The notes below the pieces were generated by a model, which did no database searches, was not told where the DNA came from, and saw only the letters and a program-made list of their open reading frames with translations. Both the position numbers and the translations under genes were made by a program. This document shows, in pieces, positions 11,263 to 18,706 of a stretch of DNA of 35,645 nt. The number at the start of each line of letters is the position of its first letter. The stretch's first letter is position 1. The DNA lies in assembly GCA_947628925.1 (NCBI GenBank), contig CANRBU010000002.1, forward strand, positions 1-35,645, read 5' to 3'. This stretch comes from an uncultured Clostridia bacterium. Its GTDB lineage: Bacteria; Bacillota; Clostridia; TANB77; CAG-508.

Positions 11263-14200
11263 TTACAAAAATTTTTGTTTCTTAAAATATTTTATATATT
11301 GTATTATATAATTTTTATCAATAATTTTCCAGTCAAAACCAATAATTTGTAAAAATTTTTCAGAAAAAGAACTATCAAGACGAATTCTAGACGTATATAC
11401 CAAGTGTTTCTGGCTATCCAAATCATGTATAATACCAGACAAAATTTGCTTTTTATCATTATCAGCAAGCATCTCATCAATTAATTTAACCATATCATCA
11501 TCAGAAATAGGTACCAAAGAATAACCCAACTCAGACACAGTATCAATAAGCAATTGAATAGGCACCAACTTCGTATTATAAACATGGAGAATATTACAAT
11601 CAAAAGCAAACCCAGAAATACGAATAATAGCATCAGCACATAAATCAACTGGAGTAATTTCAATCTCATGTTGAGAAGCATATTCAGGATAAACGCCCAT
11701 TTTCACAAAAGACTGAATACGCTTAGCAAAAGCATTTTCATCAATATTTCTTTGGAACATACCATCACGAAAACGATTAGAAATATTACCAATACGCAAA
11801 ATAATAGCATTTAAACCATCTCTAATAGCCTCCAAAATAATACGCTCAGCCTTAAACTTAGTTATTGTATAAATACCCTTCAAATGTTGACCAACAAACA
11901 AATCATGCTCACTAAAAATAACTTTATCATTAATATTTTCAGCAGTTTCAATAACAGACTCTTCCTTTTCACCATTACCAGAAACACTAATAGTAGAAAT
12001 ATGAATTAACCTCTTATTAAAATTCTTACACCAATCAACAACATTAGCAGTACCACCAACATTAACAGATTCAAACAAATCCTTATTCCCATAATGTTTA
12101 ACAATAGCACCAGCATTAATAACAGTAGAAATTTCATTTTGTAGCAATAAATTATCATCCTCAGAAAGCCCTAAGTTTTCTGATGTAATATCAGCATCAA
12201 CAACATGCATACGAGAACTATATTCATCATAAAAAGATGTACCAAAATAATATTCCAAAATATTTTTTAATCTACCAAAAGGAATCACATTATCCTTTTT
12301 ACGAACTAAGCAATAAATATCACCACTTTTCTTCTTCAAAAAAGAATAAATCAAATGTGCACCAACATATCCAGTACCACCAATCAAAAGAACATTTCCA
12401 GTATCCACTTTTTTTATAGAAGAAAGAGAACTATCAGAATTTTTAGCCAACAGCTCATTTAATTTTTTATAATTATAATTTTCGATTTCTGCCTTTGGCA
12501 CACGGTGTCTAGTTTTAGCTGATAAATCATGAATAGTAGGAAAATTAAAAATATCAGCATATTCAAAATCAAAGCCCTCACGCAAAGCCTCAATTTGCAT
12601 ATTTATAGCCAAAATAGAATCTCCACCAATATCAAAGAAATTATCATAAATAGAAACACTATCTAAATGTAAAATACGTTTCCATATATTCCATAACTTT
12701 TTCTCACTAGGAGTTTTAGTTTCATCAATAACCTTAGCAACTTTACGCTCACTCAAATCAGGCACAGGCAAAGCTTTTCTATCAATTTTACGATTAATAG
12801 TATATGGCATTTTTTCCAACCTAATAATATAACTAGGAACCATATAAGAAGGCAAAAGCTTTTTCAAAACATCCTTAACATCAGTCTCAGAAACATCACA
12901 ATCAGGCATACACACATAATAACCACACAAAAACTCACGATTTTCAGTACAAACCTTATGTGCAACAGAAATTTCAATACCATCAATTTGATTCATAACA
13001 CCTTCAATTTCACCAAGCTCAATACGCAAGCCACGTAATTTAATTTGATGGTCAACACGCCCTAAACATTGCACTTTACCGTCAAAAGTCCATCTTCCAA
13101 TATCGCCAGACTTATACATCTTACCATCGCCAAACAAATTATCAACAAATTTCTCGCTAGTCATTTCAGGCTTTTCAAGATATCCAAGACCAACTTGAAC
13201 ACCAGAAATATAAATTTCACCAACAACCCCAACAGGAACAGGACGAAGATATTTATCCAAAATATGAATTTGAGTATTCAAAATAGGAGGACCGATAGTA
13301 ATCATATTTTCACCATTCAAATTTTGAACATTACAAAGAACAGTAATTTCACTAGGCCCATAAATGTTATAAATTGTTACATCAGGAACCAATTTACGCA
13401 AATCACTAACAAATTTTTCAGGCAATGGCTCACCACCGAAAACCATATTCTTAACTAAAGATAAAGCAGAAGGTTCCAACCTATTATCATAATTAATTTT
13501 CATCAAACTAGGAGTTACTGTCATCACATCTCCACCATATTTTTTAATCAATCCATCTAATAAAATAGGATTTCGATGCTCTTCATTATTCGCCAACAAC
13601 ACGCGCAATCCATAGCCTAAAGAAACAACAATTTCATATACAAAAATATCAAAAGGAGTGGAAGTTACAGAAACCAAACAATGTTTATTACCATCCTTCA
13701 AATACTCCAAAACACTCCCCATAGCAACAACCATATTAGCAAGACCAGCTTGATGTAGCATAACACCCTTAGGCTTTCCAGTAGAACCAGAAGTATAAAT
13801 AACATAAGACAAATCATCAGGTTTAACCAAAACACAAGGATTATCAAAATTTTTAGAATAAAAAGAATTATCTAAATCAATTTCAATACAATGCTTAATT
13901 TGATAAACCAAATGCTTCAAAGACTTCTGTACCAAAACATATTTAGCCTTACAATCTTCCAAATAGTATAAAGTACGCTCAATAGGGTAAGTAGGATCAA
14001 CATTCAAAAAACAAGCACCAGCCTTTAAAATACCAAGCATACAAATAATAGTTTCAAAAGAACGGTTCGTCATAATGCACACAATATCATTAGGCTTTAC
14101 ACCTTGTGAAATCAAATAATGAGCAAGAGAATTAGCCTTTTTATTTAATTCATCATAAGTTAAAAATTTACCATCACAAATAATAGCTACATTATCTTTA

Positions 14201-16263: not shown

Positions 16264-18706
16264 TCATATCAATATTATGCAAATACCCCTTAGAAACATT
16301 TTCACCACTAATGCACAACTCGCCAGAATAGCCAATAGGCATAATATTACCAAAACGATTAGTAACAAGAGCCAAATTATTTTTTACAGGAAAACCAATA
16401 GGAACAATCCCCAAATTATCCTCATCACGCGTAAAAGGATAAAAAGTTGAGCAAATAGTGGTCTCCGTAGGACCATATCCATTAACAATTTCCATATTTT
16501 CATTAAAATTAAAATATTTCTTCAAATCAGCCTTTTTAATTGCCTCAACCCCAACTAAAATTTTATTCAAAGAAAGCTCCGAAGAATGTGAATAAACATA
16601 ATCATAAATGTCATTTAAAATATTAGGTGGAATATATAAAAAAGTAACAGCCTCTTTTTCTAAAATATCACAAAGAAGCGGGATATCAGTCAAAACATTT
16701 TGAGGATACAAAACCAAAGTACCACCAAAACACAAAGGCGTAAAAATCTCACAAACACTAACATCAAAAGCAATATTTGTACTAGACAAACAAACATCCT
16801 TCTCTGAAAAACCATCTTTAAAACAATCAGAAAAAGCAAACAAAAAATTAATCAAATTATGATGTGTCAGCATAACCCCTTTAGGTTTTCCGGTAGAACC
16901 AGATGTATAAATAACATAGCACAAACGATTACTAGGAATAGGAACATAGTCAAATTTAGAACTAACCCCATCTAAAGACAATTTATTGATATTTAATACA
17001 GTCAAATATCTAATAGTATCAAAACAAAAAGCTTGGTCAGTTAACAAAACTTTAGCATGACTATCAACTAAAATATATTTAATTCTATCTTTAGGAAAAT
17101 CAAAAGACATTGGTAAATATGCTGAACCCAGCTTTAAAATAGCTAATACACTAATTATAAAAAACTGATTTTTATGCATACAAACACCAACAATATCATT
17201 TTGCTTTACACCCAAACTACGCAAATAATTAGCCATCTGATTTGAATTTTCATCTAACTCAGCATAAGTTAAATGAACATCCTCATACACACAAGCAATA
17301 TTATTAGGATGGCGATTAACTTGTTCTTCAAAAAGCTCTATAATATTTGAATCAAAAGGGCAATCCAAAAAATCTGGCTGAAAATTCTCAGTAAGAACAA
17401 GCCTTTCCTCATTTGCAACGAACTGAACATCCTTAAGCAATATATCAGGATTATCAAGAATTTGCTCAATCATAAAACACAAACGATTATGCCAAGCAGT
17501 AATATCATCACAAGAATATTTACAATTGACAAAATCATAATAAATTTTTAAAATACCAGAATCATTCAAATCAGAAAAATGTATACTTAAATCATTCATA
17601 CAAGCACCGGGAAAAATCCACTCAGTTTCATAATCGCCAATATCACGAGAAACCGCCTTGGTAATTTGATAAGAAACCGCAATATTATATAAATGATTAA
17701 GAGAATTATTTTCACTACTTAAATCATCAATCAACTGAGAATAAGGATACCTTTGATGACGTAAAATCGACGTCAAATTAGAACGATTTATATCCAAAAA
17801 ATCTGCAAACTTCATATCGCTATCGACTTTTGCACGAAAAGGCACAGTTGAAACAAACATACCAATAGAGCGCTTTTCCTTAAAATTAGAGCGATTTAAA
17901 ATAGGTGTACCAATAAGCACATCATCAGTATTGCTTGCATTAGCCAAAAAAAGTGAAATAACAGACATAAGAAAAACATAATTAGACACCTTAAAACGAG
18001 AACAAAAATCTCCAAGGCGTTTCATCATTTGTTTATCAAAATAGAAAGTTAATCTAGAACCATCAGGTGAATCAATAAAATTGCTAGACAAAGAAGGTAA
18101 ACTAGTAGGAATAGGAGGATTTTTCAAATAGTCCTTCCAAAACTCACTATCCTTTACAAAATTTTTACTAGACAAATAAGCTTGTTCAGCCAAAATATAA
18201 TCAACATAAGAAACAGTATCAGAAACATATTCTGTACCATTAACCAAAGAATGATAAATTTTAACAGTCTCTTGAGCAACAATCCCCATAGCCCATGAAT
18301 CCATAATAATATGATGAGCCTTAATAGAAACAACTGCATAACCATTAGGAAGCCTAGGAATAGTAAATTTAAAAAGAGGCGAATCTAAAAGAGAAAAAGG
18401 CTCTTTAGCAAAATCATTCTCATAAGCAGCTAAGCTATCCATAGAAGGTAAATCTATAACAGGAATATCATCAACATCATAATCCATATCTTCCTTAACA
18501 TATTGCATAGGTTCACCATTTTTTAAAGTCAAATGAATTTTAAAATTATCATTTTCCTTTACTAAACGTACAATAGCTTTTTTTAATAATTCAACATCAA
18601 CCTGTTCTTTAATTAAACCAGGACCATAAATATTACAGACACTAGTATCTTTAAAGAACTGTTGTGTATTCCAAATATTCAATTGGGGATTGGTTAATTT
18701 CAACAT
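16211..18706 (-). CDS. NRPS, upstream part: C(starter-like)-A1 N-terminal half; frame broken between A6 and A7 cores
   Basis: - C: HHIIMDSWAM.
- A1: LTYAELDENSNQMANYL, LKLGSAYLPMS, YTSGSTGKPKGVMLTH, FDVSVCEIF, NGYGPTETT, GELCISGENVSKGYL.
The ORF ends 8 codons after an in-frame CGG (plus 16235-16237). It overlaps the downstream ORF by 53 nt. Confidence 0.92.
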   Translation of the reverse strand: MLKLTNPQLNIWNTQQFFKDTSVCNIYGPGLIKEQVDVELLKKAIVRLVKENDNFKIHLTLKNGEPMQYVKEDMDYDVDDIPVIDLPSMDSLAAYENDFAKEPFSLLDSPLFKFTIPRLPNGYAVVSIKAHHIIMDSWAMGIVAQETVKIYHSLVNGTEYVSDTVSYVDYILAEQAYLSSKNFVKDSEFWKDYLKNPPIPTSLPSLSSNFIDSPDGSRLTFYFDKQMMKRLGDFCSRFKVSNYVFLMSVISLFLANASNTDDVLIGTPILNRSNFKEKRSIGMFVSTVPFRAKVDSDMKFADFLDINRSNLTSILRHQRYPYSQLIDDLSSENNSLNHLYNIAVSYQITKAVSRDIGDYETEWIFPGACMNDLSIHFSDLNDSGILKIYYDFVNCKYSCDDITAWHNRLCFMIEQILDNPDILLKDVQFVANEERLVLTENFQPDFLDCPFDSNIIELFEEQVNRHPNNIACVYEDVHLTYAELDENSNQMANYLRSLGVKQNDIVGVCMHKNQFFIISVLAILKLGSAYLPMSFDFPKDRIKYILVDSHAKVLLTDQAFCFDTIRYLTVLNINKLSLDGVSSKFDYVPIPSNRLCYVIYTSGSTGKPKGVMLTHHNLINFLFAFSDCFKDGFSEKDVCLSSTNIAFDVSVCEIFTPLCFGGTLVLYPQNVLTDIPLLCDILEKEAVTFLYIPPNILNDIYDYVYSHSSELSLNKILVGVEAIKKADLKKYFNFNENMEIVNGYGPTETTICSTFYPFTRDEDNLGIVPIGFPVKNNLALVTNRFGNIMPIGYSGELCISGENVSKGYLHNIDMNEKSYILLPRFWLIFVL

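Follow-up and report, generated by a model that had tools for sequence, protein, structure and literature searches.

A dimodular, reductase-terminated nonribosomal peptide synthetase of gut Clostridia and the adjacent membrane kinase that probably senses its predicted acyl dipeptide aldehyde

The stretch of DNA analyzed here (the window) comprises 35,645 nucleotides of an uncultured Clostridia bacterium (contig CANRBU010000002.1 of assembly GCA_947628925.1). Its minus strand carries a single gene for a nonribosomal peptide synthetase (NRPS) of two modules with the domain order condensation-adenylation-carrier-condensation-adenylation-carrier-reductase (C-A-T-C-A-T-R), followed directly by the gene of a sensor histidine kinase with seven transmembrane (TM) segments. 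The synthetase is predicted to produce an acylated dipeptide aldehyde for which, whatever its effects on proteases, the kinase of the producer itself is probably a sensor; we put the probability of this reading at roughly 0.6. By its chemistry the NRPS joins the already known reductase-terminated dimodular NRPSs of gut Clostridia. What is new is that in this family, human-gut lineages included, the synthetase is tied to a sensor kinase of the membrane and in most cases also to a regulator predicted to be a cyclic di-GMP (c-di-GMP) phosphodiesterase, and that natural alleles exchange their first adenylation domain (A1) jointly with the kinase's sensor domain.

With the NRPS protein, corrected for a single-base frameshift (see below), 2014 homologues were recovered (E<=1e-30); many are dimodular with a length of ~2476-2490 amino acids and some trimodular (~3510 amino acids). 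The closest loci were found in rabbit-gut metagenome-assembled genomes of uncultured Clostridia and the farther ones (47-49% identity) in human-gut metagenomes, including one stool sample of the Human Microbiome Project. This agrees with the link to gut Clostridia that was drawn in the original prediction, made from the sequence alone. The G+C content (GC) of the relatives' NRPS loci was 27-29% throughout. Identity to the window across the family was 65-82% for the second adenylation domain (A2) and 35-71% for C1-A1-T1, the A2-T2-R half being much better conserved than module 1. The specificity code of A2 was invariant in 107 aligned dimodular members (DIYTVGI(I/V)LK, with only I or V at position 330). 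A fixed A2 code was also considered as a feature of the whole NRPS group, but the trimodular relatives differ and the invariance therefore concerns the dimodular family only. The A1 codes vary within the family and include those for Val (DAFWLGGTFK), Thr-like (DFWNxGMVHK), Gly-like (DILQxGxxWK), Pro-like (DVQFIAHVAK) and Met-like substrates, next to several codes without an assigned substrate.

The kinase gene begins 37 nt past the stop codon of the NRPS gene. The gap holds an 'AGGAGG' ribosome-binding site and lacks a terminator, and in some relatives there is an overlap of 8 nt between the end of the NRPS gene and the start of the kinase gene; the two genes are presumably transcribed together. 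To take a census, every retrieved locus that continues for 1.9 kb or more past the R domain was inspected, and the kinase was found directly 3' of the NRPS gene and on the same strand in 83 of the 84. In the sole exception (L087; our loci are numbered with the prefix L) a gene for a YfhO membrane protein takes its place (11409-13802), and in L020 the kinase is present but broken into two open reading frames (ORFs) (3260-5073). A trimodular relative whose genomic surroundings are unrelated still possesses the kinase and, reciprocally, two independently chosen kinase homologues were each encoded behind an NRPS of 2479 amino acids. The H-box and ATPase boxes of the window's kinase are intact. The regulator, with a REC and an HD-GYP domain, is found in most related loci as well (64 co-directional, 6 inverted, 1 absent). 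The locus had been described as minimal in the original prediction, a description that does not hold given the kinase partner, the usual presence of the HD-GYP regulator and the co-variation of the sensor with A1. Nothing on a link between NRPS, kinase and HD-GYP regulator was found in the literature searched.

The co-variation was analyzed within species-level groups, defined as loci whose kinase cytoplasmic domains are at least 90% identical, three of which (c2, c3 and c4) each hold several A1 types. Loci with the same A1 code within these groups have 7TM sensors with an identity of 0.98-1.00 (one exception, 0.74), whereas those with different codes have sensors with an identity of 0.51-0.63 (one exception, a Thr/Val pair with 0.89), and the cytoplasmic core of the kinase is 0.90-1.00 identical throughout. 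More explicitly, the nucleotide profile of L006 and L007 against L030 (group c3) shows two divergent blocks, the first made up of A1 and part of T1 (48-61% identity) and the second of the sensor (60-70%), separated by 4.5 kb that are 96-100% identical. Between L025 and L046 a single divergent block extends from the start of the NRPS to the end of the sensor, with flanks that are 98-100% identical, and between L025 and L079 a single block extends from the start of A1 to the end of the sensor. The divergence always stops at kinase residue ~200-240, which is the boundary between the TM and the cytoplasmic part. Because A1 and sensor change together between stretches that are 96-100% identical, like in the pherotypes of the agr system, the simplest reading of this correlation among relatives suggests that the NRPS product is what the kinase senses and that residue 1 is the discriminating part.

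The association is also apparent in the correlations with sensor distance, considering that A1 lies 5 kb from the sensor and that R adjoins it. The partial Mantel correlation, controlled for the kinase core and calculated on 27 dereplicated alleles, was 0.68 for A1, 0.64 for R, ~0.5 for A2, T2 and C2 and 0.39 for C1, where it should be kept in mind that Mantel tests are liberal. For 18 allele pairs within species, the correlation with the sensor was 0.84 for A1, 0.58 for R, 0.44 for T2 and 0.39 for A2. For A1 types that different species have in common, the sensor identity is 0.75-0.76 against 0.76-0.80 for the kinase core (Gly-like) and 0.93 against 0.85 (Pro-like). The window and its closest relative L001 share the A1 code and have a sensor identity of 0.70 and a kinase core identity of 0.80.

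In the mechanism that we propose, C1 would move a fatty acyl group from the cellular pool of acyl-CoA or acyl carrier protein onto residue 1, which A1, with its Met-like code, would load on T1. C2 would couple residue 1 to residue 2, loaded on T2 by A2, and the reductase would free the N-acyl dipeptidyl thioester as an aldehyde, using NAD(P)H. The product would then be sensed by the producer's own 7TM kinase, with residue 1 providing the specificity and the REC-HD-GYP regulator acting as the partner of the kinase. More tentatively, and with odds that we rate somewhat below even, the N-acyl dipeptide aldehydes of the family could be autoinducer-like signals with strain-specific pherotypes, for which the 7TM kinase would be the receptor and c-di-GMP degradation via the HD-GYP regulator the output; the hypervariable A1 would pick residue 1 and thereby the specificity, and residue 2 and the aldehyde would remain constant. 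If true, this would constitute an NRPS-based analogue of the agr specificity groups and a native role for molecules that thus far have been discussed as inhibitors of host proteases. It offers a concrete hypothesis of signalling between cells, divided into specificity groups, for which natural allele sets are ready for testing; those of group c3 are Thr-like, Val-like, DIFQTAGVFK and Pro-like.

Alternatively, the product could act solely outward, as an inhibitor of the proteases of host or competitors, a role that has been proposed for the published gut dipeptide aldehydes, with kinase and regulator being mere neighbours or sensing, for instance, envelope stress. The co-variation would in that case stem from recombination tracts or from unrelated diversifying selection, e.g. 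by phage, on the surface-exposed 7TM domain. Peptide aldehydes of gut Clostridia have indeed been described as inhibitors of cathepsins and the proteasome (PMC8518294), and the divergence in c2 and c4 runs without a gap from NRPS to kinase, such that linkage alone could suffice there; physical linkage thus accounts for the co-variation in part. In addition, a pair that shares the Thr-like code across c2 and c4 has dissimilar sensors (0.55 in the TM part versus 0.79 in the cytoplasmic part). We nevertheless consider a solely outward role less likely, given that in c3 A1 and sensor were replaced around conserved sequence, that the sensor tracks the distant A1 better than it tracks R, T2 or A2, that its conservation is close to that of the kinase core for A1 types shared across species, and that kinase and NRPS stay together also in another genomic context.

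Next to linkage and the Thr-like pair, several other points weigh against an acyl dipeptide aldehyde that is sensed by its producer. The co-variation was measured on relatives only, as the window has no comparator of the same species, and its base consists of three species-level groups, with approximately 9 types of A1 and 10 alleles of the sensor. The NRPS reading frame is interrupted in the sequence as given. C1 scored 96.8 bits against TycC6 (LCL type), 74.4 against the starter C domain (Cs) of RzmA, 59.1 against that of SrfAA and 43.5 against CDA C1, a position intermediate to the LCL and the starter type, shifted toward the latter and yet no closer to a solved starter C domain than to LCL. 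The A2 code DIYTVGIVLK had no match in the literature searched, and two-electron and four-electron reductases are not distinguishable by sequence (PMC8024701). Within the window no phosphopantetheinyl transferase (PPTase), MbtH, thioesterase or exporter was found, as had been noted before, and of these the lacking PPTase counts against the reading. Finally, no classical autoinduction loop is evident because the regulator is devoid of a DNA-binding domain.

As a by-product, the comparisons of L006 with L007 (around NRPS nucleotides ~1500-3000) and of both with L030 revealed natural, precise A-domain replacements in one human-gut species. In these, C1 and C2-A2-T2-R are 96-100% identical and A1 only ~44%, the codes being Thr-like, Val and DIFQTAGVFK. 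Such natural swaps within an otherwise identical NRPS could serve as templates for the choice of boundaries in NRPS engineering.

The organization described resembles several known systems. Like in staphylococcal agr (agrBDCA), there is a hypervariable cassette, made up of that part of the synthase which specifies the signal and of the membrane sensor of the adjacent kinase, the cassette ends sharply at the boundary between sensor and cytoplasmic part, and several alleles occur in one species. The agr signal is however a ribosomal thiolactone peptide and not the lipodipeptide aldehyde predicted here, its regulator is a LytTR transcription factor instead of an HD-GYP enzyme, and the HisKA_7TM kinase is not homologous to AgrC. 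In the RpfC/RpfG system of Xanthomonas a lipid-like diffusible signal factor (DSF) acts via a membrane kinase and a REC-HD-GYP regulator on c-di-GMP. The window would share this route from lipid-like signal via membrane kinase and REC-HD-GYP regulator to c-di-GMP, although its kinase is not a hybrid and the synthase is an NRPS and not an enoyl-CoA hydratase-type enzyme such as RpfF.

With respect to the synthetase, AusA of Staphylococcus aureus (aureusimine/phevalin) is likewise dimodular with a terminal reductase. AusA has the order A-T-C-A-T-R without an N-terminal C domain, yields a pyrazinone from the free amine and is paired with the PPTase AusB. The comparison with AusA in the original prediction was appropriate for the tail of the protein: T1-C2-A2-T2-R is collinear over its whole length with NF047350, the AusA model of NCBIfam (1042 bits, positions 774-2370 of 2373) and R matches the AusA reductase (1e-36). 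Yet the scores (1042 and 319 bits, against a cut-off of 2500) and the extra N-terminal C domain place the protein outside the AusA equivalog, from which it differs also in its Stachelhaus codes and in having a kinase as partner and not a PPTase. The gut clostridial aldehyde clusters attributed to Guo et al. (2017), among them BGC0001686 with N-octanoyl-Met-Phe-H as product, and the rup cluster of Ruminococcus bromii, attributed to Schneider and Balskus (2018), reportedly have the order C-A-T-C-A-T-R. We considered whether the abundant human-gut relatives represent R. bromii (rup), which is unlikely, as their 28% GC does not fit the ~41% of R. bromii.

The gut N-acyl dipeptide aldehyde family (for product descriptions, see PMC8518294 and PMC12327764) and the window have in common the single-gene C-A-T-C-A-T-R architecture, the habitat in gut Clostridia and the predicted N-acylation and reductive release. 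This likeness is one of architecture, habitat and product description. The described products include N-octanoyl-Met-Phe-H, which stems from an NRPS cluster of a Clostridium, and ruminopeptin, described as a Leu-Glu aldehyde with an N-acyl group (PMC8518294); the Met of the former is paralleled by the Met-like module-1 code of the window. In contrast to the cultured aldehyde producers, the relatives found here are uncultured lineages with 27-29% GC and probably other species, and neither the kinase/HD-GYP partnership nor the A1 co-variation is mentioned for the family in the literature searched. The closest solved T-R didomain (4e-49) is that of Mru_0351 of Methanobrevibacter ruminantium (6vtj), a rumen organism, although the enzyme itself is multimodular with 4187 amino acids (PMC8024701), unlike the dimodular NRPS of the window.

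The domain order C-A-T-C-A-T-R was confirmed using Pfam and NCBIfam, in line with the original prediction, and the motifs it had listed (HHIIMDSW, LGMDSL, HHIILDGTS, IGGDSI, GGTGYVGAHL and YTITK) are all present in the translation (Table 1). The R domain and both modules, whose absence from a profile search it had named as grounds for abandoning the assignment, were all recovered. More explicitly, the upstream ORF (16211..18706) contains the Pfam domains Condensation (3e-75) and AMP-binding (1.5e-82) and the downstream ORF (11263..16263) AMP-binding_C, two stretches of PP-binding, Condensation (3e-92), AMP-binding (6e-76) and NAD_binding_4 (1e-44). The NCBIfam thioester-reductase model TIGR01746 was covered over its full length (E 4e-54), at 184 bits and thus under its cut-off of 213 bits. 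The catalytic residues are intact, i.e. the HHxxxD of C1 and C2, the serine of T1 and T2, the A3, A7, A8 and A10 cores and the GxxGxxG and S/T-Y-K motifs of R, and all catalytic motifs are kept across the 107 aligned family sequences. An ORF on the opposite strand within the NRPS interval (13069..13458, 129 amino acids, TTG start) was discarded for lack of support. Taken as a whole, the original prediction proved sound in its domain map, the AusA-related tail and the gut clostridial relatives and reasonable in the N-acylation; the pyrazinone product is unlikely and the minimal locus does not hold.

To predict the product, the Stachelhaus codes were read on a GrsA ruler that was checked to be 100% identical to residues 234-527 of 1amu. 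The A1 code (DVCYLGGICK) is identical in 9 of 10 positions to DVWYLGGICK, which is listed as Met-incorporating in a 2025 survey (PMC12283262), and the substrate of A1 is accordingly presumed to be Met-like. The pocket of A2 is uncharged, with a T at position 278 on the 1amu ruler. C2 is a clear LCL domain (237 bits, 3.7e-69, to TycC6 and 51 bits to the RzmA Cs domain). For C1, it is reasonable to assume a starter C domain that N-acylates residue 1, as had been suggested earlier, an assignment that is based on position rather than on sequence type: the domain is complete from residue 2, no carrier domain lies upstream, and no second NRPS gene was called in the gene tables spanning 8-10 kb on each side of the relatives. 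The nearest solved relatives of the R domain are the peptidyl carrier protein-reductase didomain (PCP-R) of Mru_0351 (6vtj, 4e-49), the AusA reductase (4f6c, 1e-36) and MxaA (2.3e-22). The best-supported product would thus be an N-acyl-(Met-like)-Xaa aldehyde.

The pyrazinone put forward in the original prediction is unlikely, because an active starter C domain would block the amine by acylation. It would require that C1 is inactive or vestigial, so that the free dipeptide aldehyde could cyclize to a dihydropyrazinone or pyrazinone like that of AusA. The collinear tail and the related R domains fit with such a scenario, as does the fact that the starter type of C1 is not clear against solved structures. 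We hold it to be improbable all the same, considering that C1 is full length from residue 1, that 102 of the 107 family members retain its HHxxxD, that its mean column conservation across these members equals that of C2 (0.70 versus 0.69) and that the trimodular relatives start with a C domain as well. A similarly small chance is given to a four-electron reduction, which would yield an N-acyl dipeptide alcohol. The reductases of the short-chain dehydrogenase type include alcohol formers such as MxaA, and the extent of reduction is not predictable from sequence (PMC8024701); but among R domains of known chemistry the aldehyde-forming AusA is closer than MxaA, and the characterized products of gut C-A-T-C-A-T-R enzymes have been described as aldehydes (PMC8518294).

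The interruption of the reading frame deserves separate attention. The NRPS interval (11263-18706, minus strand) is filled exactly by two minus-strand ORFs, of 831 (16211..18706) and 1666 amino acids (11263..16263), which overlap by 53 nt and differ in frame by +1, the break being located inside A1 between cores A6 and A7. Deletion of base 16237 restores an uninterrupted protein of 2480 amino acids without stops, equal in length to its closest homologue (P0001, 73% identity). The T of TATATTTTG and the A of 'GAAAAG' were considered as the extra base and ruled out, since the alignment to the relatives points to the C of 'CCTCGG'. Three further genes on the contig are broken by a +1 shift in the same way, i.e. 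those of Tex (cut at ~7916, with both sides 93% identical to the 727-amino acid protein of L001), a zeta toxin (25692..26165 and 26128..26502, break ~26136) and an AAA_14/DUF4143 ATPase (28189..28650 and 28601..29458, break ~28621). Each of the four intervals (7916, 16237, 26136 and 28621) holds exactly one CGG/CCG, and in the two cases where the break could be placed by alignment (NRPS and Tex) the indel lies within the CGG. At a density of 2.8 CGG/CCG per kb the chance per interval is 0.09-0.13 and the joint chance ~2e-4, a figure that is indicative only, as the motif was picked post hoc, after inspection of the data. The CGG-centred breaks suggest either an insertion error that depends on sequence context or a mutational hotspot. 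No second lesion was found in the 7.4 kb of AT-rich NRPS coding sequence, and the identity of the NRPS to that of the outgroup L003 is 56.4% for the window, 57.9% for L001 and 58.2% for L002, so without a marked rate acceleration in the window lineage.

Because of the four CGG-associated +1 breaks, the absence of a second lesion and of a marked substitution excess, a context-dependent assembly error appears rather likely and is favoured over decay. Were the frameshift real, the strain would recently have inactivated its NRPS and would make no product, while retaining an intact receptor kinase and regulator. The insertion is there in the sequence as given, the inserted base lies outside any homopolymer run, and broken partners are known in relatives (the split kinase of L020 and the missing one of L087). 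This scenario is doubtful in view of the number of breaks, four among ~30 genes and including the well-conserved Tex, the single CGG in every interval, which points to a context-dependent error, and the otherwise undamaged and not markedly accelerated NRPS sequence.

Table 1. Positions in the window of the NRPS, its domains and the associated elements.
Feature	Position	Strand	Remarks
NRPS, C-A-T-C-A-T-R	11263..18706	-	2480 codons once one base is removed; as written split in 16211..18706 and 11263..16263
C1, N-terminal condensation domain	17372..18706	-	Residues 1-445; HHIIMDSW; Pfam Condensation 2-436; presumed acyl-transferring starter C
A1, adenylation domain	15811..17371	-	Residues 446-965; code DVCYLGGICK (Met-like); hypervariable specificity domain of the family
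T1, carrier domain	15571..15810	-	LGMDSL
C2, condensation domain, LCL type	14236..15570	-	HHIILDGTS; Pfam; best PDB match TycC6 (3.7e-69)
A2, adenylation domain	12676..14235	-	Code DIYTVGIVLK
T2, carrier domain	12421..12675	-	IGGDSI
R, terminal thioester reductase domain	11266..12420	-	GGTGYVG, ISTIS, YTITK; Pfam NAD_binding_4 (1e-44); TIGR01746; PDB 6vtj and AusA-R
Extra base	16237..16237	-	Coding-strand C in CCT[C]GG; +1 frameshift in A1; from DNA alignment to intact relatives L001 and L002; corrected peptide NEKSYILLPGFGSSLFYKTGD
Sensor histidine kinase	9417..11225	-	7 TM segments (residues 8-220, HisKA_7TM), PAS, H-box GGIAHNLKTP, ATPase domain
Response regulator, REC and HD-GYP	8295..9356	+	FHDIGK, HHHEKFDGTGYP; Pfam Response_reg and HD_5; predicted c-di-GMP phosphodiesterase
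Inverted repeat of 31 nt between the convergent regulator and kinase genes	9349..9416	.	Likely bidirectional terminator
Divergent NRPS/htrA intergenic region	18707..18848	.	By eye TTGCTT, 16-nt spacer, TATAAT; GGAG ribosome-binding site before the NRPS ATG

The regulator has intact HD and GYP motifs in the window, and its nearest NCBIfam model is 'response regulator c-di-GMP phosphodiesterase', with a score under the cut-off. In the window its gene is precisely inverted as compared to L001-L003 and most other loci; it lies behind Tex with its own ribosome-binding site and is convergent with the kinase gene. The convergent order of kinase and regulator was also observed in another lineage (L033, L034, L037, L040-L042, L096 and L097). 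The third codon positions of the regulator gene have A 0.62 and T 0.18 in the window, compared to A 0.32 and T 0.49 in L001. Because the composition of the synonymous sites has thus re-equilibrated to the present strand, the inversion is old and real and not a misassembly. In the human-gut lineage of L006 and L007 kinase and regulator are parted by an insert of ~4 kb (19300-23200), with genes that are TraG-like (type IV secretion system coupling protein) and DnaJ-like, the latter split. In the window itself, a c-di-GMP-I riboswitch (31619-31707, minus strand, 76 bits) is situated upstream of an ORF of 216 amino acids without a Pfam match (30941..31591), indicating that the organism uses c-di-GMP signalling, the predicted output of the HD-GYP regulator.

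Both neighbours named in the original prediction, the downstream kinase and the divergently transcribed HtrA (18849..19988), were assigned correctly. HtrA was considered as a functional partner, i.e. as target or in immunity, and rejected: although often divergent upstream, it does not adjoin the NRPS in L010 and the L053-L078 group and has been relocated in other loci, and the proximity is synteny only. The putative NRPS promoter was read by eye and is absent from the list of a consensus scan, which for promoters and terminators gave hits at background level. No RNA element was found by Rfam in or beside the NRPS gene.

Several features of the remaining contig may be mentioned. In positions 1-22400 of the window the third codon positions are extremely strand-asymmetric whatever the orientation of the gene, with A 0.59-0.71 and T 0.10-0.20 for the plus strand, T 0.62-0.66 and A 0.16-0.17 for the genes on the minus strand and a GC skew at third positions (GC3 skew) of about +/-0.5-0.7. 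The skew is far weaker in relatives, with ~+/-0.25 in L001 (Tex up to +0.49) and ~0 for the NRPS and kinase genes of L007 and L012. The asymmetry is gone past ~22.6 kb (22600-35645), where the GC falls to 19-26%, and this region would be an island that was acquired or else a chimeric join. It includes, in the stretch with the lowest GC (19-22%), an ORF of 687 amino acids without a Pfam match (23402..25465, plus strand), which adjoins genes for a zeta toxin and for HAD, Fic and AAA_14/DUF4143 proteins, a content that is island-like.

At the other end of the window, an S-adenosylmethionine (SAM) riboswitch (257-349, plus strand) is followed by an ORF of 287 amino acids without a Pfam match (425-1288) and by metK, encoding S-adenosylmethionine synthetase (1401-2540). 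Finally, between htrA and prfA a Cys-rich ORF of 86 amino acids (20069-20329, plus strand), putatively of TSCPD type as judged by eye, accounts for a block of ~300 nt that is conserved with L001 and L002.

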